Shown: positions 3,523 through 25,162 of the stretch, in pieces | How positions within the stretch are numbered: position 1 is the stretch's first letter | How the letters are laid out: each line of letters opens with the position of its first letter | Origin: Planctopirus limnophila DSM 3776 | Lineage (GTDB): Bacteria; Planctomycetota; Planctomycetia; Planctomycetales; Planctomycetaceae | Assembly: GCF_000092105.1 (NCBI RefSeq) | Contig: NC_014148.1 | Span: forward strand, 5,010,001 to 5,042,000 | Direction of reading: 5' to 3' | Length of the DNA stretch: 32,000 nucleotides | Translations under genes and position numbers: made by a program | The notes under the pieces: generated by a model | Seen by the model: only the letters and a program-made list of their open reading frames with translations | Databases searched by the model: none | What the model was told of the DNA's origin: nothing

Positions 3523-4644
3523 TCAAACGGCCAGAAATGCTTCCAGCACCAGTTCGCCCATGCGTACGGTCGAAACAGCCGGGCCACCCCCCGCAATGTC
3601 AGCTGTCCTGTGTCCACGAGACAAAACGTGATCGACCGCCTTCTCAATGGCCACCGCTTCCGTTTCCAGATGCAGCGAATGACGCAGCAGCATGGCCGCT
3701 GCGAGAATAGTAGCCAGCGGGTTTGCAATTCCCTTACCGGCAATATCCGGTGCGGATCCATGAATCGGCTCGTACAACCCTGGGCCATCTGCACCCAGAG
3801 AAGCCGAAGGCAACAGCCCCATCGAGCCGGGGAGCATTGAGCCTTCATCGGTGAGGATGTCACCGAAGAGATTCTCAGTCACCACGACGTCGAAGTTCTT
3901 GGGCTTCGAAATCAGGTGCATGGCCATGGCATCGATCAACACATGCTCCGTCTGCACATCCGGGAACTCAGCCTGCATGACACGATCAAACGTCTGGCGC
4001 CACAATCGCGAAACTTCGAGTACGTTGGCCTTATCCACGCTGGTCACTTTCTTGCGACGCCCACGCGCTGCCTGTCCCGCGAGACGGACAATCCGCTCGA
4101 TCTCGTAAGTGCTGTAGATCATCGTGTTGAAAGCGGTCTCGCTGCCATCCGGATTGGTCTTGCGGCCCGATTCCCCAAAGTACAACCCGCCGGTCAACTC
4201 GCGGAAGAACAGGATATCCACTCCCGCAACAATCTCGGTCTTCAAAGGCGAGGCCTGCACCAGATACGGCGAAGCCTTGATGGGGCGCACATTTGCGAAC
4301 AATCCCAGCTCTTTACGAATCTTGAGCAGACCCGCTTCGGGCCTGGTCTTGGCACTCGGGTTATCCCACTTCGGCCCACCCACAGCCCCCAGCAGAATCG
4401 CCTGGCTCGCCCGGCAGATCGATAACGTCTCATCGGGAAGAGCTTCACCCGTCGCGTCGATGGCACAGCCGCCAATCAGACCCCGCACGAACGAAAATTC
4501 GTGGCCAAACTTCTTCGCCACAGCCTGAAGCAGCTTTTCTGCTTCCGCCACGACTTCCACACCAATTCCATCGCCAGGCAACAAAGCAATCTGAGCACGC
4601 ACAGCTAACGCTTTCTCGAAGAGGTAGGCTTTTGACAGTTTCAA
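3523..4644 (-). CDS. leuB: 3-isopropylmalate dehydrogenase
   Basis: [31 protein letters not shown] and [19 protein letters not shown] blocks with a length of about 360 aa. Codon 4644 is TTG (GGAGGAG lies 10 nt upstream). An alternative GTG at 4602 would give the canonical short N-terminus. Confidence 0.9.
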
Positions 4645-5303
4645 GCTTTCCCAGCTCCTCCCGATGACACCTCATCCTGTGCAATAACTGCAACCGGCAG
4701 GATCAACGTTCAGATTCGGGCAGGCCTTTTAGATTTGACGCTTCTACAAAGCATACGCGGTCGATTCCTCCTCCAACAGCCTCCGACGATGCGACTTTTC
4801 CATCGCACGCATTTCTCGAACAGCAGATTCAAGGCCCTGCACGCAGACATTTCCGATTGGATCGCGGCCTGCCCACCTGTCTCTCACCACCCGAGATGGC
4901 TCGAACATCTGGTCTTCAACCTCCCGGTACAACCGCAATGATCACAACCGCAACTTGCCCCACAGCAAAAGAGGCCCTGTCGCATCGATCACCCCGCGAA
5001 ATGCACACACAATCGCCACATCCCTTAAACCCGGAATCTCTCCCGAAGTGCCCCACAAACTCACGCCGAATTCCCAGTTTCTCACAGTCCCTCCGGTACA
5101 ACTCTCACCAGAGTGGGGTTTACATTCCTGCCAGGGAATGCTGTTGTTCATTTTCTAAACTCCCGCAAAACACCAGCGAAAACGATCCCCAACAGACATA
5201 ACCCCTTGCTACGTATACACTCACGCTGAACAATCCATAGAGTTTCTCTTACGAGATCTTGTCCTGCGACAAACCTTCGATTCCAGAAAAGGTTGCCTGA
5301 GCC

Positions 5304-7022
5304 GTGCTGATTCTTGAATGGGACAAGTCACAACTGACGGCCCTCACCAGTGACACTCGCATTTCCAAGGTTCTCGCCTGGCCCAACGGCGAGCGGATCG
5401 TGGAAACCGATGCTGGACATTCGTCCTGGCTGAAAGGTGAACTTGCCGAATTCCTGGGCAAAGAAAGCAAAGTCACACTCGTCATCCCTCGTGAAGACGC
5501 CATTCTCAGGCATCTCGAACTTCCTCCCACTCCCGAAGACGAAGTGCTCGATGTTGTCACGTTGCAGACCACCATGCGGTCATCGGTCGCACTCGATCAG
5601 GTGCTGCTCGATTACCTCCCTCTCAATGTCAAACTCCCACTGGCCGACGAACTGACTCCCAGTGGTCACATGCGCACCATCTCTCCGGAAGAAGCGGCTG
5701 CACAATCTCTTCCCAGCAGCACACTCCATGTGCTCGTTGCCACCATTTCTTCCAGTTTTGTGCGGAACATCCAGCAGCTTCTCGATTCGGTCGGATTAAG
5801 CGTCGTCCATGTGGCACTCTCGAGTTGTGGCTATGCCACGCTTTTGCGACAAGCCCTCGATCCTGCCGATCAGGCGGCCTTTGTCGTCGAGCGGGATGGC
5901 CGAGTCGAAACCACGGCCTTTGCCGATGGCCAGCTCCTTTTCGCCCATTCAGCGCGTGTCCCTCACGGAGCCCGCAATGAGCAGGGACGACCGACACCAC
6001 TCGCTGTGGGTGCCGAAATTTCCCGCGGATTGTTTGCCGCTCGGCGCATCGCTCCCGAGTTTCATCCCCGCCGGTTGATCATTGCCTCAGCCTCCGGAAT
6101 CGATGCCGATTTGAAAGAGGCTCTGGCTTCACAGTTTGAATGCCGGGTCGAAGAAGCTCAAGAACTGGTTTCCCGCACACCATTGGCGGGTGCCGCCAGC
6201 AAGCTGGTTGCAGACTCTGCAGGTCATTCCTCTCCAGAGATCTCGGCACAGGCGCTCGCCAACTGGATTGGCTGCCTGGGGTTCGTCACACCTCTTCCCG
6301 ATCAGTGTCGCCTCGATTTTCTCCACCCCCGAAAACCGGCTCCCAAGCCCGATTACCGCCGGGTGAAACTTGTTACTGCAGCCACAGCCGCACTCATGCT
6401 CACAGCCCTGGGAGTCGCCTGGCAAGCTTCGGTCATTGCCTCTCTCGATGAGCAGCTGCTGGCCATGAATGTTCGCAATGTCGATACCAAGACCACGTTG
6501 AAAAATGGCGAAGGCGATCAGAAAGTCTTCGTGGCTGTCGATGACTGGCAACGCCACGCCCCAAAAATCACAGTCGAACTCGGTCGGCAAGCCAAAGTTC
6601 TCCCTAACACTGAACGCCTTTTGTGGACCAACTGGTCAATCACGGCTGGCGCGGGCGAAGTTTATGGCCGGATGCAGGCTTCAGGTCTGGCCCGCACGAA
6701 CAGCGATGTGACCGATCTGGGCAATCGCATGGCGGAAACCAAAGAATACCGCATCGTCCCCCGCGAACTGGCAGGAATCAGCAAAGATCCCGATTACAAA
6801 CAACGTTTTGAAATCGACGCCACGTTGTTACCACCAGCCCCGCCACCCAAATCAGCAGCACCGGCAAAAGATGCGAACCTGCCCCTGCAGCCGCAAACGG
6901 CACCCAAGGCTGATAACAAGCTCCCAGCCTCCAAAGAACAACAGGCCAAAGAAACAGCGACCACCTCTGTGAAGTCCACTCTCGACTCGTTTGGCTCGGC
7001 AACCGATGGGGGTGAAGTATGA
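5304..7022 (+). CDS. PilM-PilN fusion-like (GspL-like) bitopic membrane protein
   Basis: GTG start. Residues 1-330 follow the PilM/GspL cytoplasmic pattern (KVTLVIPREDAILRHLELPPTPEDEVLDVV, LDQVLLDYLPL, HVLVATISSSFVRNIQQLLDSVGLSVVHVALSS), but read LILEWDKS where PilM has (G)LDIGS. Residues 336-345 (RLDFLHPRKP) resemble the PilN INLLPxR peptide. One TM helix follows at aa ~354-379 (nt ~6363-6440), then a ~125-aa PilN-like periplasmic part and a Pro/Ala/Lys/Gln-rich tail. The coding call is solid; the functional call is by eye only. Confidence 0.55.
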   Translation: MLILEWDKSQLTALTSDTRISKVLAWPNGERIVETDAGHSSWLKGELAEFLGKESKVTLVIPREDAILRHLELPPTPEDEVLDVVTLQTTMRSSVALDQVLLDYLPLNVKLPLADELTPSGHMRTISPEEAAAQSLPSSTLHVLVATISSSFVRNIQQLLDSVGLSVVHVALSSCGYATLLRQALDPADQAAFVVERDGRVETTAFADGQLLFAHSARVPHGARNEQGRPTPLAVGAEISRGLFAARRIAPEFHPRRLIIASASGIDADLKEALASQFECRVEEAQELVSRTPLAGAASKLVADSAGHSSPEISAQALANWIGCLGFVTPLPDQCRLDFLHPRKPAPKPDYRRVKLVTAATAALMLTALGVAWQASVIASLDEQLLAMNVRNVDTKTTLKNGEGDQKVFVAVDDWQRHAPKITVELGRQAKVLPNTERLLWTNWSITAGAGEVYGRMQASGLARTNSDVTDLGNRMAETKEYRIVPRELAGISKDPDYKQRFEIDATLLPPAPPPKSAAPAKDANLPLQPQTAPKADNKLPASKEQQAKETATTSVKSTLDSFGSATDGGEV

Positions 7023-8815
7023 ACACCCGCGAACGCAATCTCCTCATCGGACTGGGTGGAGCAGCCATCCTCTACGTGGCTTACAGCTATCTTTATCCGG
7101 CTGTCATGGCACCCATTACCGATCGGCAGAACAAGCTCGCTGAAGTGACCGAGAAGGTCGACAAAAGCGATGCCGAAATCCTTCAGCTTCTACAAAAACG
7201 TAAACAACTCGGCCAATGGAAAGCTGTCTCGTTACCAGCCGATCCTCCCACCACCAAACGACCTGATGCACTCAACGCCCAAAGGCTCTATCTCAACTGG
7301 CTGGGGTCCATCGCAGAAAAAAGTCGTCTTCAACGGGTAAAAACAGCACCCGAACGTCGTCAAACCAAACCCAACCTGTATATCAGCGTGGCCATCTCTT
7401 TGACGGGTGAAGGGACTGCCGCACAAATCTCCGATTTCCTCGCCCGGCTCGAACTGGCACCACTGCTACACCGCGTGAATCGCGTCCGCATCGAATCGAC
7501 AGATGTCACCGGAAATCCCCCCTTCAAGATCGATCTCGAACTCGAAGGGATCGTCTTCCCCGAATCACGCCCTCGCAACACCCTCTTCCCTGAAACATCT
7601 CTCAAAGAGGCCATGGCTGCTGGCAGTACCGAGTTAACGGTTGCCGATCCACTCGCCATACGCCTCCCCACTCCCTTCGAGATTCTCGTCGGCGATGAAC
7701 GCCGCCAGGTGCAGGCGATCAACACGACGACGGGCGTCTGGAAACTGCAAAAATCTCCTTCCAACAAAGCTTTTCCTGCGGGGACGATCGTGCAGGTCCC
7801 TTCTGCACCTCCCGAAGCGATGATTACCGCTCTTGCCAGTCAGATTCAGAGTGGCTGGAGATTCCTCAAGCCCGTCCCGCCCGCCAAATACGATCCACGC
7901 CTCGAAGCTCAAGGCGAAGCCGTGCTTCTGACGGGAACCCCGCTGCGCCAGACCATCGAATTGAAAGGGACTGCCGGTTCCACTCCCACTCTCAAACCCA
8001 CCGGCACCTGGCCTGCCGGTCTCTCGTTCGATGCTCAATCTCGTCGCATTACCGGCGAACTCCCGAAAGGATCAGCATCGGCAGAAACCTCAAAAAATGA
8101 ACTCACCTTGACGTTCGATGTCCTTCCCGAGAAAGACGCCTTCCCGACTGTCGAACGTTCCATTCGCTTTACGATCAAAGACCCGAACACACCCCCCGAA
8201 ATCGCTGCCGTCACCAAACTGTTACCAGCCGTTGCCGGCCGTGTGTGGAAGCTCGAACCTCAGGCGACGGATCGAGAAACGTCTCGCGACAAACTCAAAT
8301 GGTCGGCAGTTTCATTGATCGAAGGGATGTCGTTCGACTCCAAAACCGGCAGGATCGAATGGATCCCTTCGATCTCTGCCGAACCAGGTGCCAAATCGGT
8401 GGAATTGCGTGTCACAGACGATTCGAACCCGCCTCTGGCAGCCACGCACGTGTTCAACTTCGAGCTCTCCGAAGATCTCCCGCAGTACACTTATCTGATC
8501 GCTGTCATCGAAGGGCCGGTCTCCTCAGAAACCACCCCTGCCAACACCACCCCAGCCAACAGTTCCAACTCTTCTGCCGGGATGGAAGTCTGGTTCTTTG
8601 ATCGCCTCCAGAGCCGTAAACTCGTGATGCTTCCGGGCACCCCGCAAGTGATAGGCGACCTGGAGTTCGTGATTGAAGAAGCCACACCTCAGCAGATCAT
8701 TCTGCTGGTGAACGGCCAAAGGCAGCGCCTCGAACTCGGCAAAAGTCTACGCGAACTGGTGCCTCTGGAGACAGCGGCCACAGGAACCAACGCACCCTCG
8801 ACTGACACCCGCTGA
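7019..8815 (+). CDS. PilO/GspM-like membrane protein extended by two putative-Ig (cadherin-like) repeats and a PilP/GspC-HR-like C-terminal domain
   Basis: The ATG overlaps the upstream stop (ATGA, 7019-7022). TM helix at aa ~7-28, then a coiled coil and a PilO-like core (YISVAISLTGEGTAAQISDFLARLELAPLLHRVNRVRIES). Two Ig-like motifs: WPAGLSFDAQSRRITGELP (aa 331-349) and LIEGMSFDSKTGRIEWIPS (aa 433-451). The C-terminal YTYLIAVIEG...VWFFDRLQSRKLVMLPGTPQVIGDLEFVIEEATPQQIILLVNGQRQRLELGKSL (aa ~488-582) resembles a PilP/GspC-HR domain. Confidence 0.5.
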   Translation: MNTRERNLLIGLGGAAILYVAYSYLYPAVMAPITDRQNKLAEVTEKVDKSDAEILQLLQKRKQLGQWKAVSLPADPPTTKRPDALNAQRLYLNWLGSIAEKSRLQRVKTAPERRQTKPNLYISVAISLTGEGTAAQISDFLARLELAPLLHRVNRVRIESTDVTGNPPFKIDLELEGIVFPESRPRNTLFPETSLKEAMAAGSTELTVADPLAIRLPTPFEILVGDERRQVQAINTTTGVWKLQKSPSNKAFPAGTIVQVPSAPPEAMITALASQIQSGWRFLKPVPPAKYDPRLEAQGEAVLLTGTPLRQTIELKGTAGSTPTLKPTGTWPAGLSFDAQSRRITGELPKGSASAETSKNELTLTFDVLPEKDAFPTVERSIRFTIKDPNTPPEIAAVTKLLPAVAGRVWKLEPQATDRETSRDKLKWSAVSLIEGMSFDSKTGRIEWIPSISAEPGAKSVELRVTDDSNPPLAATHVFNFELSEDLPQYTYLIAVIEGPVSSETTPANTTPANSSNSSAGMEVWFFDRLQSRKLVMLPGTPQVIGDLEFVIEEATPQQIILLVNGQRQRLELGKSLRELVPLETAATGTNAPSTDTR

Positions 8816-8947
8816 GCCATTGAATTCATCCTCACAAGCGAAATCAGGGCACCGATTGTTTGCCAATGGCGATTGATCATGAGTATCCCGCAATGAGGCT
8901 GGTTGTTGATAGAACGCCACATACGCTTCGAGTTCCGCTCATCCCAA

Positions 8948-9015
8948 CCTTCTCCCGTCAGAACGGGAGAAGGAGCAAAAACCCCTCGCCCACGTCTGCG
9001 TGGGAGAAGGTTTTT
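8948..9015 (+). terminator. Nested hairpin / terminator-like element built on the GGGAGAAGG motif
   Basis: CCTTCTCCCGT-CAGA-ACGGGAGAAGG forms a perfect 11-bp stem (8948-8973). A second GGGAGAAGG lies at 9002-9010. It is preceded by the CCCACG-TCTG-CGTGGG hairpin (8989-9004) and followed by TTTTT (9011-9015). The element sits between convergent genes. Confidence 0.5.
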
Positions 9016-9219
9016 CAGGTATGCGCACGGCTTCTTGTTGTCGTGCCTTCGCTCAACAACCCAGCTACAAGTTGGCCGGGCGACCCTTAGTGGAGGATGA
9101 CAGCCCTCTGGCGGGTTGTGAAGACAGGCTTGCCCGGTATCAACTCAAAACAGGCTGTAAGCATGGCACACACAACGTTACGGCTTCGTAGTAACGAATG
9201 ACAACGCAAACAGTGGCGA

Positions 9220-9795
9220 TTATGCGGGGCGATTCTTGCCGGGAATCCAGAGCACATCGGCTTTCCCGCCATCGTTGCAGAGTCTGGCCAGGCAGAAGAG
9301 GAGATCGGAGAGCCGATTGAGGTAGATCACACAATGAGGGCTGATTGGTTCCTGCTCACTGAGAGCGATGACACCAATTTCCACGCGGCGGCAAACGGTT
9401 CGCGCGACATGTAAAGCAGCGGCAGCTTCTGTACCGCCGGGCAATACGAAGCTGGTCAGAGGAGACAACTGATCGACGGCCTCATCAATCGCCTTTTCCA
9501 GTCGTTCAATTTGAGCCGCCGTCATCCGCAGGGCTTCTCCGGGCGCTTCGTTCTCTTTCTGAGGGATGCACAGATCGGCCCCCAGATCAAACAGATCGTG
9601 CTGGATCGAAGTGAGCAGTTGTCGAATTTCCTCAGTGAGTTGGGCATGTAAAGCCACGCCCAGGGTGGCATTGAGTTCATCGACCCCACCATACGCAACA
9701 ATTCGGGGACTGGTTTTCGAAACGCGGTCTCCGTTGCCAAGGCTGGTTAATCCCGAGTCGCCCGACTTGGTGTAAATTCGATTCAGGTAAACCAT
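9220..9795 (-). CDS. PduO/MMAB-type ATP:cob(I)alamin adenosyltransferase
   Basis: N-terminus MVYLNRIYTKSGDSGLTSLGNGDRVSK, a helical-bundle remainder and a length of 191 aa are typical of this family. Confidence 0.9.
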   Translation of the reverse strand: MVYLNRIYTKSGDSGLTSLGNGDRVSKTSPRIVAYGGVDELNATLGVALHAQLTEEIRQLLTSIQHDLFDLGADLCIPQKENEAPGEALRMTAAQIERLEKAIDEAVDQLSPLTSFVLPGGTEAAAALHVARTVCRRVEIGVIALSEQEPISPHCVIYLNRLSDLLFCLARLCNDGGKADVLWIPGKNRPA

Positions 9796-10018
9796 CAGTC
9801 ATTTCGCTTTGAAGGCAGGAGCAGTCGAGCACGCGGCGAGAGAGTAGACAGAAACACTGTTCGCGAAAGTGAATCTGCGTCTTTCGATTCTAGTACAATT
9901 TCGCCACGCGATCACCCCAGCCAGACATTCGGTCGCAAATTCATATCATCCCTCGTGAACTGGCGAGGAATTGGCTCTGCTGAACTTGATTCTGACCTGT
10001 CGAGATGTCGAGAGTCGA

Positions 10019-11248
10019 TTAGTGGCGACGCCGGTATTCGCCGGGAGTGACCCCCAGCTCACGGCGGAAGGTACGCACCAGAACTTCCACGTGATTAAAG
10101 CCAGTGAGCTGGGCAATGCGGGCCAGTGGAAGAGTGGTTTCTCCCAGGAGGCGTTTGACGTTCTGCAATCTCATCCTGCGAAGGACATTGGCTGGGGTAT
10201 CGTCGAGCACTTTATGGAAGCGGTGTTCCAGCACCCGGCGGGAGACATTGAGAGCTTTCTCCACATCCGCAATCTGAATCGGTTCGCTCAAATGGTCGCG
10301 CATAAAACGAACGGCCATATCGACCAGAGGATCATCGACAGCCGATGTTTCCGTGGATCGGCGCTGCACCACACCGACAGGGGGGACAAGAATCGGCTCT
10401 TCCGGTGCTGGTTCGCCATTCATGAGTTTGTCGAGCAAAGTCGCTGCTTCGTAACCGACACGGACAGGAGCCTGGTCGATATTGGAAAGCGGGACTGGTG
10501 CCAGAGCTGACAACAGTGGATCGTTTTCACCAACGAGCAGGGCGATATCGTCGGGAATCCGAAAGCGGCTGAGGCGGGCACAGGTCATTAACTCGCGGCC
10601 CACTTCACCACTCCAGGTGAAGATTGCCGTTGGCTTGGGGAGCATTTTCAGCCACTGCAGAAAACCTTTTCGTTGAGTTAAAAGGTCAGGGACAGGAATG
10701 GGAACTGTGGGCTGATAAATGCTGGTCTGATGACCGGCTTGCAATAGCGTATTGATGTAGTTTTTCCCCAGCAGATCGTCATATCCCGCACGATGAATCG
10801 GCCCGATGTAGGCGAAGCTGCGGAAGGATTGTTCGAGGAAATGTTCGGCAGCGAGCCTTCCGCAAGCCGCTTCATCGGAGACGACTTTGGGGATCCGGAG
10901 GGAGTGCTGTCCCATCCAGGAGACGTTGACGCAGGGCAGGTTGCTTTTGAGGATCTGCTTTTCGAGTGCGGGGTGAGTGAGGCGGGCAATAATGCCATCA
11001 CCACTCCAGCCCTTGGGAATCAGCAGTTTTTCGTCGTGACCGCGTGGCTCGATGAAGAAATCCCAGAAGCCGTGCTCGCTGGCATACTGGGCAATCCCGC
11101 GCAAGACCTGCCTCGTCCAGTCAGATGAGGTATGGACGATGAGTGCCACACTGCGATGCATGGTGGGTGGCATGGCCGATACCGGCAATGTCGCTGGACG
11201 CGGAGAAATTTCGGACGAATCCTGGGAAGCGGGGGCTTCTTGCGACAT
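10019..11248 (-). CDS. XylR-like transcriptional regulator (sugar-binding PBP-like domain + AraC-type HTH)
   Basis: The C-terminal AraC double HTH reads LARIAQLTGFNHVEVLVRTFRRELGVTPGEYRRR. The N-terminal ~270 aa have the LacI/XylR-type periplasmic-binding-fold pattern. The gene is divergent from the DUF1559 gene. Confidence 0.8.
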   Translation of the reverse strand: MSQEAPASQDSSEISPRPATLPVSAMPPTMHRSVALIVHTSSDWTRQVLRGIAQYASEHGFWDFFIEPRGHDEKLLIPKGWSGDGIIARLTHPALEKQILKSNLPCVNVSWMGQHSLRIPKVVSDEAACGRLAAEHFLEQSFRSFAYIGPIHRAGYDDLLGKNYINTLLQAGHQTSIYQPTVPIPVPDLLTQRKGFLQWLKMLPKPTAIFTWSGEVGRELMTCARLSRFRIPDDIALLVGENDPLLSALAPVPLSNIDQAPVRVGYEAATLLDKLMNGEPAPEEPILVPPVGVVQRRSTETSAVDDPLVDMAVRFMRDHLSEPIQIADVEKALNVSRRVLEHRFHKVLDDTPANVLRRMRLQNVKRLLGETTLPLARIAQLTGFNHVEVLVRTFRRELGVTPGEYRRRH

Positions 11249-11522: not shown

Positions 11523-12545
11523 ATGAAAATGCGCATTCGCAAAGGGTTTACCCTGATTGAGCTTTTAGTCGTGATCGCAATTATTGCGATTTTGATTGCT
11601 TTGCTGCTTCCGGCTGTCCAGCAGGCACGGGAAGCGGCTCGCCGGACACAGTGCCGGAACAATTTGAAGCAATTGGGACTGGCAGTGCATAACTTCCACG
11701 ATCAGTTTGGAAATCTGCCGCCGGCTGCCAATACCGGACTGGGTGAAGTCTGGTCAGCAGCACTATTGCCCATGTTGGATCAGGCCCCACTTTACAACAC
11801 CCTTGATACGGCCACCCTGTTTACGAACTACACTGAAGGGAATAATTGGGGAAATGGCTCAGCGACTTACGCGGCCAGTGGTACGAGTGTGACCGATCGA
11901 AACATCCGTGCCTGTCGAGCCGTCATTCCTGCCTTCCGTTGTCCTTCATTGCCGGGCCCGACGAATGTGCTCGATATCAGCACGGATGGCTGGTATGTGA
12001 GTGACCGGTTCATTGCGACTTATATTGCCTGTGCCTCAGGAACTGCTGTCACCGATGCCAATCGATTCCTGGACGATAATGGCATGCTCCCTGTGCGTGA
12101 TAAGGTCACACCGGCCGGTGGAACCATTTCGCGAACTCCAACGCATAACTTTCGAGATATTACCGATGGCCTCTCGAATACTGTTCTGATTGGCGAAACC
12201 AGGCCACAGACCGAAAATCTTTCATCACCAACGGAACCTGTTGATGGCACAGCCACTGGCCAGCGCTATGATCACTGGATTATGGGTGGTGATGGCATGG
12301 ATACGGGTGGTACGAGGACAGATGCCTCTGAGTTTTTCGGTTCACTGGGCGTGGGAATCAACCTGTGGGACTCCGTGACAGCCACTGATGTACAGAAAGA
12401 AGTCTCGTTTGGCAGCACTCATGAAGGGGGTTGCCATATGCTGATGGGTGATGGTTCCGTCCGCTTCATCAGCGAAAACATCGACTCGACGATCCGCACA
12501 GCAATTGGGACTCGAGCCAGTAGCGAAGCTGTTGGTGAGTTTTAA
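11523..12545 (+). CDS. DUF1559 protein with prepilin-type N-terminal cleavage/methylation domain (planctomycetal H-X9-DG family)
   Basis: RKG|FTLIELLVVIAIIAILIALLLPAVQQAREAARR has the G-1/F+1/E+5 prepilin signature. The C-terminal STHEGGCHMLMGDGSVRFIS is the H-X9-DG motif. Confidence 0.9.
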   Translation: MKMRIRKGFTLIELLVVIAIIAILIALLLPAVQQAREAARRTQCRNNLKQLGLAVHNFHDQFGNLPPAANTGLGEVWSAALLPMLDQAPLYNTLDTATLFTNYTEGNNWGNGSATYAASGTSVTDRNIRACRAVIPAFRCPSLPGPTNVLDISTDGWYVSDRFIATYIACASGTAVTDANRFLDDNGMLPVRDKVTPAGGTISRTPTHNFRDITDGLSNTVLIGETRPQTENLSSPTEPVDGTATGQRYDHWIMGGDGMDTGGTRTDASEFFGSLGVGINLWDSVTATDVQKEVSFGSTHEGGCHMLMGDGSVRFISENIDSTIRTAIGTRASSEAVGEF

Positions 12546-23624: not shown

Positions 23625-24512
23625 ATGATGTCATTCGCGGGAATTGTGGTTATGGCCAGTATTGAGACCTCTGATCTGCATCGAACTCCCGGTGGCAGTA
23701 ATGGCTTCAGGAAGCAATTACAGGTGGCGACTCAGTGTGCACGAGAGCTTATCGATGAACTCAACGGCAGTCGCAAAGCCGATATGCTTGCATCGGGTGC
23801 TATTCATGGCCTGGCTCTACTGGCGAAGGAAGCTTCACGTCGTAGTCTGCCCGTATCAGAGAAGGAGGTGGACTACTGGAAGGAGGTGTTTTTCAAGTGG
23901 TGTGAGTCCGTCAAACGACACTTTGCCGAGCCCGTGCGGGACGAGTTCAGAAGTAAGGCGGAAGCGGACTTTGCCTTAATTCGTGAGAAGGCAGATATCC
24001 TGTCAGAGACTCCCTGGGAACAACTCCGCACGCGCTATGTGCATCCCGTTCGATTTCCAACTCGAGAGGCTTTCGATCTCGCATGTGATCGAGCGAAGGC
24101 GAAGTACCCCGCTAATCTTGGCATAGCCCTCGACAAGTATCTGGCGGCCTGTGTGCAACGTCTTCTGGAGGCTGACGATGTTGACCAGCCACTCGTCGTC
24201 AAGGTCAAAGAAGAGCCACCGGAAGATCGTCCGGGAACTGTGGCCCCGCGCTTTATCACATTCGACGACGGAGTCCATTCAATCGTCGTCACCTCATTTG
24301 GTGGCTTGCAGCGTCCCGCGAACTCGGGATTAGGTCTGCAAAAAGCCATTCAACAGCAGCTTCGCAAAACGGCACCAGGCACACTGGAGCAATTAGAGTT
24401 CGACTCGGAAAGTTCAATGTTTACAGTCCGATCACGTTCGCTGGATTCCCTCGCTGCCGTTGCACAGGCGATCTTCTCGATAGCGGCAGCCAAGAAAAAC
24501 AGCTCTTCCTGA
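23625..24512 (+). CDS. Hypothetical 295-aa protein
   Basis: The long ORF has ordinary composition and no TM helix or signal peptide. An alternative start is ATG 23652 (MASIETSD). No family recognised. Confidence 0.6.
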   Translation: MMSFAGIVVMASIETSDLHRTPGGSNGFRKQLQVATQCARELIDELNGSRKADMLASGAIHGLALLAKEASRRSLPVSEKEVDYWKEVFFKWCESVKRHFAEPVRDEFRSKAEADFALIREKADILSETPWEQLRTRYVHPVRFPTREAFDLACDRAKAKYPANLGIALDKYLAACVQRLLEADDVDQPLVVKVKEEPPEDRPGTVAPRFITFDDGVHSIVVTSFGGLQRPANSGLGLQKAIQQQLRKTAPGTLEQLEFDSESSMFTVRSRSLDSLAAVAQAIFSIAAAKKNSSS

Positions 24513-24622
24513 TGACAGGAGATATGTGAACGACAGGCAGATCAGACAGGCATCACGGATCGTGTGAACTCTGATTTAATCTTTTCTGTTGAGTGCATAA
24601 GCCATAACAATGACAGGTATCT

Positions 24623-25162
24623 ATGAAGAGCCGCTGGTTTGATCAACCATTCTGCAGAGTATTTCCTATCGCACATCTGATGCGAGCGGAATTTCCGGAA
24701 TATTGGCTGCGAATTCATTCATTGCCGGAGTCCAAGCGATATCCAGAGAATGATATCGAGAGGCAGATAGTATTTGAGCGATATTCAAGTTTCGGTACAG
24801 AGTTGCTCGGTGAAGATGCCCGGTGCATGATCATCCGATCAAGGTTGAATGGGTTCCAAAGCAGAGAGGCGTTCATACCAGAAATAGAGTGGACGCCGAT
24901 TCATCGAGTCATAGAAGACGAGGCATATCACTGGGATTGCTTCAGGGGTTACATAACTTGGAATTCGCAGGCTCTCCGAAAACTACTTTTAGCGATTGCA
25001 GAAGACGAGGAAGAACACATAGCGTTTCTTTCAGAAACGAATGACAACGTGTTTATTCCGTATGATGGAGGTGCAGATGGATTCTCATTCGATTCAGCAC
25101 TTCTGCAGAAACTCTCGGAACAATTTGCTCCGTGGCGATCGTTACATCCTCTTGGCCTATGA
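24623..25162 (+). CDS. Hypothetical protein, possibly DUF3885-like
   Basis: The EYWLRIHSLPESKRYPEND block matches my recollection of the DUF3885 signature (W.R.HSLP.SKRY). The coding region is low in GC. Confidence 0.5.
   Translation: MKSRWFDQPFCRVFPIAHLMRAEFPEYWLRIHSLPESKRYPENDIERQIVFERYSSFGTELLGEDARCMIIRSRLNGFQSREAFIPEIEWTPIHRVIEDEAYHWDCFRGYITWNSQALRKLLLAIAEDEEEHIAFLSETNDNVFIPYDGGADGFSFDSALLQKLSEQFAPWRSLHPLGL

Follow-up and report, generated by a model that had tools for sequence, protein, structure and literature searches.

Plim_3902 and Plim_3903 are two adjacent genes of Planctopirus limnophila DSM 3776 that lie within a stretch of 32,000 nucleotides (NCBI RefSeq assembly GCF_000092105.1, contig NC_014148.1, positions 5,010,001 to 5,042,000 of the forward strand); this whole stretch was analysed and is called the window below, with positions counted from its first letter. 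In public annotation, the product of Plim_3902 (open reading frame 1, ORF1) is a 'hypothetical protein' or 'Fimbrial assembly family protein' and that of Plim_3903 (ORF2) an 'Ig family protein'. Our analysis indicates that they are probably the inner-membrane platform subunits L and M (the latter with a C-like part) of a planctomycetal machine of T2SS (type II secretion system) type, detached from its operon. The two genes share the four nucleotides ATGA (Table 1), an overlap that was described in the initial annotation of this DNA and is confirmed by the ORF coordinates, and which implies translational coupling of ORF1 and ORF2. The surroundings are likewise as first described: some 660 bp without a credible gene lie upstream, where the promoter of the pair is presumably located, and a convergent gene lies downstream (leuB and the cobalamin adenosyltransferase gene, respectively, both on the minus strand). 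A hydropathy scan revealed one transmembrane (TM) helix per protein, at aa ~354–376 of ORF1 and aa ~8–30 of ORF2. Amongst the approximately 20 other genes of the 32-kb window there is no secretin, GspE/PilB ATPase or GspF/PilC gene, and GspD, E, F, G, H, I, J and K are absent alongside L and M, which agrees with the earlier observation that no secretin, ATPase or pilin gene stands beside the pair; the sole pilin-like gene of the window encodes a DUF1559/H-X9-DG prepilin-type protein (11523–12545), again as first noted.

Table 1. Features of the Plim_3902/Plim_3903 locus (window coordinates) and, in the last three rows, secretin genes in related loci (coordinates of the respective locus).
Feature	Position	Strand	Remarks
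leuB	3523..4644	minus	upstream, divergent from ORF1
Intergenic region 5' of ORF1	4645..5303	.	~660 nt, without credible ORF
ORF1, Plim_3902 (ADG69713.1)	5304..7022	+	GTG start, 572 aa
Cytoplasmic actin-like, PilM-like domain, ORF1 aa 1–330	5304..6293	+	Foldseek, family profile
RLDFLHPRKP, ORF1 aa 336–345	6309..6338	+	equivalent of the PilN N-terminal INLLP motif
TM helix, ORF1 aa ~354–376	6363..6431	+	hydropathy; continues as long periplasmic helix to aa 418
Periplasmic ferredoxin-like domain, PilN/GspL_C type, ORF1 aa 420–510	6561..6833	+	alpha-beta-beta-alpha-beta-beta in structure model
Disordered Pro/Ala/Lys/Gln-rich periplasmic tail, ORF1 aa 511–572	6834..7019	+	pLDDT <50
ATGA start/stop overlap, ORF1/ORF2	7019..7022	+	4 nt shared
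ORF2, Plim_3903	7019..8815	+	ATG start, 598 aa; order: GspM/PilO-like domain, small beta domain, two Ig domains, C-terminal beta domain
GspM/PilO-like module, ORF2 aa 1–190	7019..7588	+	TM helix (aa ~8–30), coiled coil, ferredoxin-like core
'Mid' domain, ORF2 aa 191–295	7589..7903	+	small beta-rich domain, then helix and FxKPxPP stretch
Two He_PIG/cadherin-like Ig domains, ORF2 aa 296–485	7904..8473	+	Pfam He_PIG
C-terminal beta domain, ORF2 aa 486–585, candidate HR (GspC/GspB/PilP-like)	8474..8773	+	marginal library matches
Hairpins 3' of ORF2	8946..9015	+	~130–200 nt past stop; two alternative perfect 11-bp stems
PduO-type cobalamin adenosyltransferase	9220..9795	minus	downstream, convergent to ORF2
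Giant secretin beside ORF2 homologue, L005	13709-17452		6–7 Secretin_N repeats
Giant secretin beside ORF2 homologue, L032	13495-17571		6–7 Secretin_N repeats
Giant secretin beside ORF2 homologue, L064	5272-9432		6–7 Secretin_N repeats

Direct searches of Pfam, NCBIfam and the PDB using ORF1 or a three-sequence alignment gave no match, and word-indexed homologue searches returned two to three matches for each protein (two orthologues in case of ORF1), even with a 64-sequence alignment. The ORF1 family was gathered by an exhaustive HMMER search; clustered at 50% identity, it comprises 690 clusters at E ≤ 1e-3, of which 253 reach E ≤ 1e-10, and the majority of members have 480–530 aa and are matched over their full length. 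Amongst 64 aligned members, 53 match Pfam PilM_2 (PF11104, best 4e-14), with further matches to T2SSL (9, all weak, best 5e-4), PilN (5) and GspL_C (4); the window protein itself has no T2SSL match. In Pfam, the family consensus matches PilM_2 (2.3e-15, exceeding the gathering score), GspL_C (2.1e-5) and PilN (2.5e-4), together with TIGR01175 pilM (9e-24) and Amuc_1101_fam (3e-21) in NCBIfam, and the family profile retrieves PilM structures from the PDB (2ych, 9e-19; 3jc8, 4e-14; 5eou, 1.7e-10). Alignment of the family to E. coli GspL and HofM using hhalign was not significant, single divergent templates being a weak test. An AlphaFold2 (AF2) model calculated from the 64-sequence alignment (predicted local distance difference test, pLDDT, of 86) exhibits the actin-like (ASKHA, acetate and sugar kinase/Hsc70/actin) fold with the subdomain layout of PilM and FtsA, and its closest matches in Foldseek are PilM (5eox/5eou/2ych, about 1e-14 to 2e-14), followed by FtsA (1e-10) and then the cytoplasmic domain of EpsL/GspL (5e-9). 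The PilM/GspL-like character first proposed for residues 1–330 is thus borne out by family profile and structure model alike.

Opposite the motifs GIDISS, DIGAT and GGGS of PilM, the family reads LDWEKE, R(H/D)G.R and (G)SEE, the last of which is IASAS in ORF1, and the stretch LILEWDKS, which had been singled out as the counterpart of the PilM phosphate loop, does fall on the GIDISS phosphate-1 loop. In this alignment the nucleotide-binding motifs (phosphate-1 DxGS/T, phosphate-2 DxGxxxT and adenosine GGG) are absent from ORF1, and their degeneration extends across the whole family, operon-borne members included: judged from these motifs, nucleotide binding has probably been lost in ORF1, as in GspL. 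The best-conserved motif of the family is DFLxPRKP (RLDFLHPRKP in the window protein), in which D338, P342 and R343 are invariant or nearly so across the 64 sequences. In a hidden Markov model (HMM) alignment to 5eou, an engineered chimera of PilM and PilN(1–12), the family segment '..aiDFL' falls on 'MARINLL', and in the AF2 model residues 331–350 are non-helical with a pLDDT of 95; because a non-helical segment is modelled with such confidence, the model suggests that the DFLHPR segment is docked in cis in the PilM-like domain. The idea of a tethered INLLP peptide therefore stands as regards alignment and conservation, with its docking predicted from the model.

C-terminal to this motif, a helix covering residues 351–418 of the AF2 model is made up of the TM helix plus a stalk in the periplasm and leads to the ferredoxin-like domain; the single TM helix and PilN-like periplasmic part that had been proposed for ORF1 are supported by hydropathy, by the model and by the GspL_C and PilN matches of the consensus. 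The tail that follows is poorly conserved even between close relatives. ORF1 hence exhibits the bitopic architecture of GspL (cytoplasmic actin-like domain, one TM helix, periplasmic ferredoxin-like domain): its PilM-like domain is fused to the PilN-like part and has the INLLP-like motif in cis, unlike soluble PilM, which binds a separate PilN. Such a PilM–PilN fusion is not new, as this is the accepted description of GspL/PulL (reviewed in PMC10191384); what is distinctive in ORF1 is the full PilM-size domain together with the retained INLLP-like motif.

In case of ORF2, the same direct searches (single sequence or three-sequence alignment) returned He_PIG only, and the window protein alone reached T2SSM at no better than 0.0019–0.026. 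Using a profile of 51 sequences, residues 1–190 match PilO from M. xanthus (3jc8_Oa) at 9.7e-6 over 154 positions, whilst the consensus of this region matches NCBIfam T2SS_GspM_XpsM (NF040576) at 1e-10 and Pfam PilO at 2e-5 (25.2 bits, cut-off 22). Individual members match PilO (10, best 3.9e-6), T2SSM (8) and T2SSM_b (5), and hhalign of the family against the canonical GspM of an outgroup locus (L008) gave an E of 1e-4. The AF2 model of ORF2, built from three sequences, has a pLDDT of 40 and is unusable; Foldseek matches of this low-confidence model to PilO, cadherin, Rib and Amuc_1100 are weak corroboration only. The initial description of a TM helix, coiled coil and PilO/GspM-like core is upheld by the GspM_XpsM and PilO profile matches. 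Compared segment by segment using profiles and, for ORF1, a structure model, ORF1 and the N-terminus of ORF2 thus gave significant similarity to the platform proteins, whereas that of the ORF2 C-terminus (discussed below) was marginal.

The roughly 100 residues of ORF2 that had been left unassigned, here the mid domain, indeed belong to no Pfam or NCBIfam family, but their profile (24 sequences) matches repeats in the minor tail protein of a phage (PDB 8vjh_A; 8.6e-6), with a common motif that reads roughly L.V....FP...F.v.Ig.E.l.Vt...g..WtV.RG...T....H..G..VeL. The mid domain is confined to a subset of the ORF2 family; an origin from a phage or other mobile element, considered on account of this likeness, was rejected as no supporting context was seen, the domain being an optional insert in a cellular family. 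The two putative-Ig repeats that follow were correctly recognised at the outset (Pfam He_PIG, PF05345: 1.5e-10, 41.8 bits against a cut-off of 24, two stretches), and this region of the relatives matches RibLong, Big_9 and Cadherin. The architecture of ORF2 is kept down to 26–28% identity. Of 57 complete family members, 26 consist of N-terminal module and C-terminal beta domain alone, 3 have the mid domain and 1 the Ig region between them, 23 have both, and 4 retain the N-terminal module only. Since 53 of the 57 thus keep both ends, the mid and Ig domains are optional inserts and the N-terminal module and C-terminal beta domain the constant core; the mid domain and 0–2 Ig domains may be modular inserts that set the length of the protein.

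The genomic context of the pair was analysed in loci of the ORF1 family taken from genomes and metagenomes, in which genes were mapped using local HMMER searches; 65 loci with at least 1 kb of upstream sequence enter the count of upstream context and 75 the count of ORF2 adjacency. In 51 of the 65 loci the ORF1 homologue has gspJ/K as its direct upstream neighbour, usually preceded by gspE-F-G-H-I, and an ORF2 homologue follows in 65 of the 75; the position between gspK and gspM of a T2SS operon, which ORF1 does not hold in the window, is held by its homologues in these 51 loci. Directly after the ORF2 homologue, three loci (L005, L032 and L064) carry the gene for a secretin of 1247–1386 aa and two more (L049 and L065) a secretin ORF cut by the contig end. 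In the first three, a conserved ORF of 373–585 aa that belongs to no Pfam family follows the secretin, and a conserved 84-aa ORF without known role also flanks the secretin in operons. The operon genes score best as T2SS equivalogs (GspE 600 versus PilB 552 bits, GspF 349 versus PilC 277 bits and, for the secretin, GspD 322 versus PilQ 207 bits), with GspG, H, I, J and K also recognised, albeit just below the NCBI equivalog cut-offs. No separate gspC was seen in operons carrying the pair, whilst the outgroup locus L008 has a canonical GspM of 222 aa, a separate GspC-like gene (GspC_delta, 1.2e-5) between gspM and the secretin gene, and a secretin with three Secretin_N repeats, N0 and SPOR.

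From this gspE-K context in the relatives it follows that the pair probably belongs to a T2SS-type machine rather than to a type IV pilus alignment complex, and that it is an operon fragment: a stand-alone two-gene module, as the pair had first been described, was rejected on account of the operon context. The pair is indeed isolated in the window, but this isolation is specific to one lineage, the orphan pairs of the window, of other Planctopirus species and of Schlesneria forming one clade in a neighbour-joining tree; the ORF1 family itself is large (690 clusters, as above), and the pair of the relatives is mostly operon-borne. The competing explanation, that Plim_3902 and Plim_3903 form the alignment subcomplex of type IVa pili (PilM~N and PilO~P) serving a pilB/C/T/Q machine, draws on the fact that PilM and PilO are the best structural and sequence matches, on the match of ORF1 to the Akkermansia Amuc_1101 'PilM-like pilus complex' family, and on L005, L032 and L064, where the genes, in the arrangement [M~N][O~..~P-like][secretin], resemble pilMNOPQ; the pair being unlinked in P. 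limnophila, a pilus partner is also formally conceivable. We consider this explanation rather unlikely, as the pair of the relatives shares its operon with GspG, GspH, GspI, GspJ and the T2SS-specific GspK, as the models of GspE, GspF and GspD outscore those of PilB, PilC and PilQ on the ATPase, the platform protein and the secretin, and as the ORF2 N-terminal consensus matches GspM_XpsM more strongly than PilO. The ATP motifs of PilM are moreover lost in ORF1, as they are in GspL. No pilT homologue was found among the called genes, with their Pfam families, of L005, L007 and L008, which were inspected gene by gene (the all-locus survey had no pilT query). The ATPase of the operon scores as GspE and not as PilT.

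Two variants of this operon type were observed alongside. L005 encodes a 983-aa protein (6941–9892) with a prepilin N-terminus, a GspJ-like region at aa 26–95 and a GspK match at aa 432–638, apparently a fusion of the minor pseudopilins GspJ and GspK. In L026–L030, which represent one marine clade, the ORF1 homologue closes a complete gspE-K operon and has no ORF2 homologue next to it; the next gene encodes a secreted Asp/Arg/Gly-rich protein of 333–343 aa with EF-hand-like 'DKDG/DKNKDG' motifs (for example L030 11463–12494 and L027 11464–12465).

The C-terminal beta domain of ORF2 raises the question of a GspC-type function. The HR (homology region) domains of GspC, GspB and PilP have a common fold and bind the secretin's N0 domain (PMC9239104), and HR families are the top library matches of the ORF2 domain, although these are marginal (Pfam T2SSB 0.0017 and NCBIfam GspC_delta 0.014, followed by T2SSC 0.073, PilP 0.13 and GspC-HR from the PDB, 3oss_C, 0.35). 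They rank first in two independent libraries (Pfam and NCBIfam) and align to the same segment; the small beta-barrel families MS_channel_2nd and RuvA_N score at comparable levels. Further tests were negative: hhalign of a 40-sequence C-domain profile against single sequences of E. coli GspC, E. coli HofP and the GspC-like protein of L008 gave probabilities below 1%, phmmer searches with GspC, GspB, HofP and x159 (the L008 GspC-like protein) against the family and reversed decoys performed no better than decoys, and a subfamily profile found no HR match in the PDB. A local HMM search found no region resembling the domain outside the ORF2 family, and eight full-length family members gave no PDZ match. 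The PilP/GspC-HR identity put forward in the initial annotation was thus not confirmed, and of its four alignment functions packed into two polypeptides, the PilM, PilN and PilO/GspM parts stand and the PilP/GspC part stays a candidate; the Thr/Pro/Asn/Ser-rich stretch, described as a linker in front of the domain, is present in Planctopirus but interrupts the domain as an insert (aa ~499–520).

Based on the sequence matches, we nevertheless lean towards regarding this domain as a putative HR-type domain. In the opposing view, ORF2 is of GspM type and its Ig and C-terminal domains bind cargo, peptidoglycan or another envelope layer instead of the secretin, with the GspC function absent or provided by an unrecognised protein. 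The marginal HR similarity, the comparable scores of MS_channel_2nd and RuvA_N, the giant secretins next door in which no N0 is detectable, and the conserved ORFs of 84 aa and 373–585 aa that flank the secretin would all accord with such a role. We judge it quite unlikely, given that HR families lead in two libraries on one and the same segment, that the GspM-like module has this domain as its constant partner whilst the inserts between the two are optional, that the gene abuts the secretin gene in some operons, and that L008 has its separate GspC-like gene at exactly that position.

Detachment from all partner genes in the window, together with the degenerate nucleotide-binding motifs of ORF1, could also point to a decaying, non-functional remnant of operon break-up, yet this is very improbable. 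Both ORFs are intact and exhibit a dN/dS (ratio of nonsynonymous to synonymous substitution rates) of 0.09–0.16, and the ATP motifs are equally degenerate in members that still reside in operons. Pair, 4-nt overlap and the upstream synteny with leuB and an M28-peptidase gene are found in P. hydrillae (L002, 94–97% amino acid identity) and in a metagenome-assembled genome (MAG, L001, 64–69%), the gap of –4 recurs in many operon-borne pairs, and the full domain architecture is kept to 26–30% identity across the whole clade of orphan pairs, Schlesneria included. A pseudogene remnant was rejected on the grounds of dN/dS and conservation.

We therefore return to the reading of Plim_3902 and Plim_3903 as displaced platform subunits of a T2SS-type machine. 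ORF1 would be the GspL equivalent, with a full-size PilM-like actin-fold domain that lacks ATP-binding motifs. If the analogy to PilM and GspL holds, this domain would be the docking site of the GspE-type ATPase, as GspL binds the N1E domain of GspE; the PilN-type peptide DFLHPR would join this domain to the TM helix, the long periplasmic helix and the ferredoxin-like PilN/GspL_C domain. ORF2 would be the GspM/PilO equivalent and pair with the periplasmic part of ORF1, as PilN does with PilO and GspL with GspM. Its C-terminal portion would cross the periplasm by way of the small beta domain and the two Ig domains, which may serve as spacers extending the periplasmic reach, as would fit the 6–7-ring secretins beside Ig-type homologues, and would end in the conserved beta domain, most likely in the HR role of GspC and PilP and thus in contact with the secretin base. 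The two genes, which are the last of a gspE-F-G-H-I-J-K-L-M operon in most relatives, would have moved away in the Planctopirus/Schlesneria clade whilst still being under purifying selection.

Several points weigh against this assignment. The window proteins themselves show no PilM, GspL or GspM match above threshold, so that their assignment is transitive, by way of family profiles and a structure model, and the best PDB matches of ORF1 and of the ORF2 N-terminus are type IV pilus proteins (PilM and PilO). The machine of the relatives is a divergent T2SS-like system with scores just below the cut-offs, and the partner machine of P. limnophila is deduced by analogy from these relatives. The HR assignment of the C-domain is not statistically secure; in addition, the Pfam N0 domain was not detected in the giant secretins next to ORF2 homologues, and a canonical HR–N0 contact is therefore putative.

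No paper on Plim_3902/3903 or on GspL/M from planctomycetes turned up in the literature search, and the GspM-spacer-C-like fusion appears to be neither annotated as such nor studied. The initial claim of an uncharacterised fused architecture consequently holds for this fusion and not for that of PilM and PilN; of the two circumstances in which novelty was expected to be lost, an ordinary set displaced from its operon is what we find, whilst an earlier annotation or study of the same fusion is not. All parts stem from known families and the type of machine is known, and in this respect the finding is incremental. A more far-reaching view, possible but in our estimation rather doubtful, is that in Planctomycetota the entire L/M/C (or M/N/O/P) platform of a T2SS-like machine has been condensed into two polypeptides: a 'proto-GspL' with an intact PilM fold and an in-cis PilN INLLP latch, an evolutionary intermediate between PilM plus PilN and GspL, and a GspM-HR fusion whose spacer inserts would match the 6–7-ring secretins and thereby adapt the machine to the enlarged planctomycetal periplasm. 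The unlinked pair of Planctopirus might then be a shared platform, possibly for the large DUF1559/H-X9-DG pseudopilin family.

Should the assignment as T2SS-type platform subunits prove true, it would supply the T2SS-like systems found in Planctomycetota with their missing GspL and GspM components and probably with the GspC function; proteins with public names such as those given above would be missed by model-based system finders, especially when unlinked. A natural PilM–PilN fusion that retains the INLLP motif would bear on the origin of GspL from PilM and PilN and on the regulation of PilM by PilN, and a testable rule would emerge, according to which an M–C fusion has more spacer domains the more N-domains the secretin has, and hence the wider the periplasm is. 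It would also provide two candidate genes for the genetics of secretion and fibre assembly: P. limnophila is a planctomycete amenable to genetic work and has many DUF1559 prepilin-like proteins for which no assembly machine is known.

Two blocks upstream of the pair are conserved as far as MAG L001: 'CGGTACA...GGGGTTT' at ~5095–5125, and the AAGG-N-GTG start context 'AAGGTTGCC..GCCGTGCTGAT' at 5285–5310. These may represent a promoter or regulatory element and a ribosome-binding site; the GTG start and AAGG context of ORF1 as well as the ATGA overlap are kept in the window, in P. hydrillae and in the MAG (3 of 3 genomes). Scans of the window and its intergenic regions, including the upstream 660 nt, for Rfam families, tRNAs and the sigma-70 consensus gave no match. 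Downstream, hairpin A (8948–8958/8963–8973) and hairpin B (8946–8956/9002–9012, followed by TTTTT) each have a perfect stem of 11 bp and are a possible terminator, although a simple terminator scan did not call them. Elsewhere in the window, the DUF1559 protein exhibits a GspG-like N-terminus (7.6e-10) and a C-terminal H-X9-DG motif, and its gene is divergently paired with that of an XylR/AraC-type regulator (10019–11248). Two adjacent small genes at 23625–25162 encode immunity-protein-like domains, Imm51 (weak, below the cut-off) and DUF3885; none of their neighbours was recognised as a toxin gene.

Amongst known systems, ORF1 shares features with both GspL and PilM. As in GspL/PulL/EpsL (T2SSL PF05134 and GspL_C PF12693), a single polypeptide carries cytoplasmic actin-like, TM and periplasmic ferredoxin-like parts without nucleotide-binding motifs, and the gene of the relatives follows gspK and precedes gspM. 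Unlike GspL, the cytoplasmic domain of ORF1 is of full size (~330 aa versus ~235 aa in EpsL), is structurally nearer to PilM (Foldseek, about 1e-14) than to EpsL (5e-9) and retains, ahead of the TM helix, an INLLP-like motif of PilN type, whilst the window protein has no T2SSL match and its gene is unlinked from the operon. With PilM and PilN of type IVa pili (T. thermophilus 2YCH, P. aeruginosa 5EOU), ORF1 shares the fold, a profile similarity of 9e-19 and the alignment of DFLxPR with INLL, and this natural fusion has the topology of the engineered 5EOU chimera. It differs in being one polypeptide with degenerate phosphate-1, phosphate-2 and adenosine motifs, and the genomic partners of the relatives are the T2SS pseudopilins GspG-K and not pilins and PilT. 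A PilM-like protein is also known from another member of the PVC (Planctomycetes, Verrucomicrobia and Chlamydiae) superphylum, Akkermansia muciniphila, whose MUL2 locus (Amuc_1098–1102, with the PilM-like Amuc_1101, Amuc_1100 and the secretin-like Amuc_1098) is implicated in mucin use. Amuc_1101_fam (3e-21) and the Amuc_1100 structures, matched alongside PilO by the low-confidence ORF2 model, link it to both families; the score of 76 bits stands against a cut-off of 650, however, the composition of the locus is different, and no Ig or C-terminal extension is described there.

ORF2 resembles GspM/XpsM and PilO in its N-terminal TM helix, coiled coil and ferredoxin-like core, and the gene of the relatives comes right behind the L-type one, which it often overlaps by 4 nt. 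The canonical proteins are ~160–220 aa long and end after the core, whereas the ORF2 family adds 130–450 residues and ends in the conserved beta domain. Like GspC, GspB (OutB) and PilP, it is anchored in the inner membrane and has, at the end that would face the secretin, a candidate for their small beta domain; in some operons its gene lies directly before that of the secretin, comparable to gspC-gspD and pilP-pilQ. In contrast to these proteins, the beta domain of ORF2 is fused to a GspM-like part, its homology to HR is not statistically established, the PDZ or coiled-coil domain of GspC and the lipobox of PilP are lacking, and the secretins beside its homologues have no recognisable N0. A fusion of GspM-like part, spacer and beta domain is nonetheless compatible with the fold that the HR domains of GspC, GspB and PilP have in common and with their binding of N0 (PMC9239104), and equally with the known trimeric complex formed by XpsC, XpsL and XpsM (PMC11981180).

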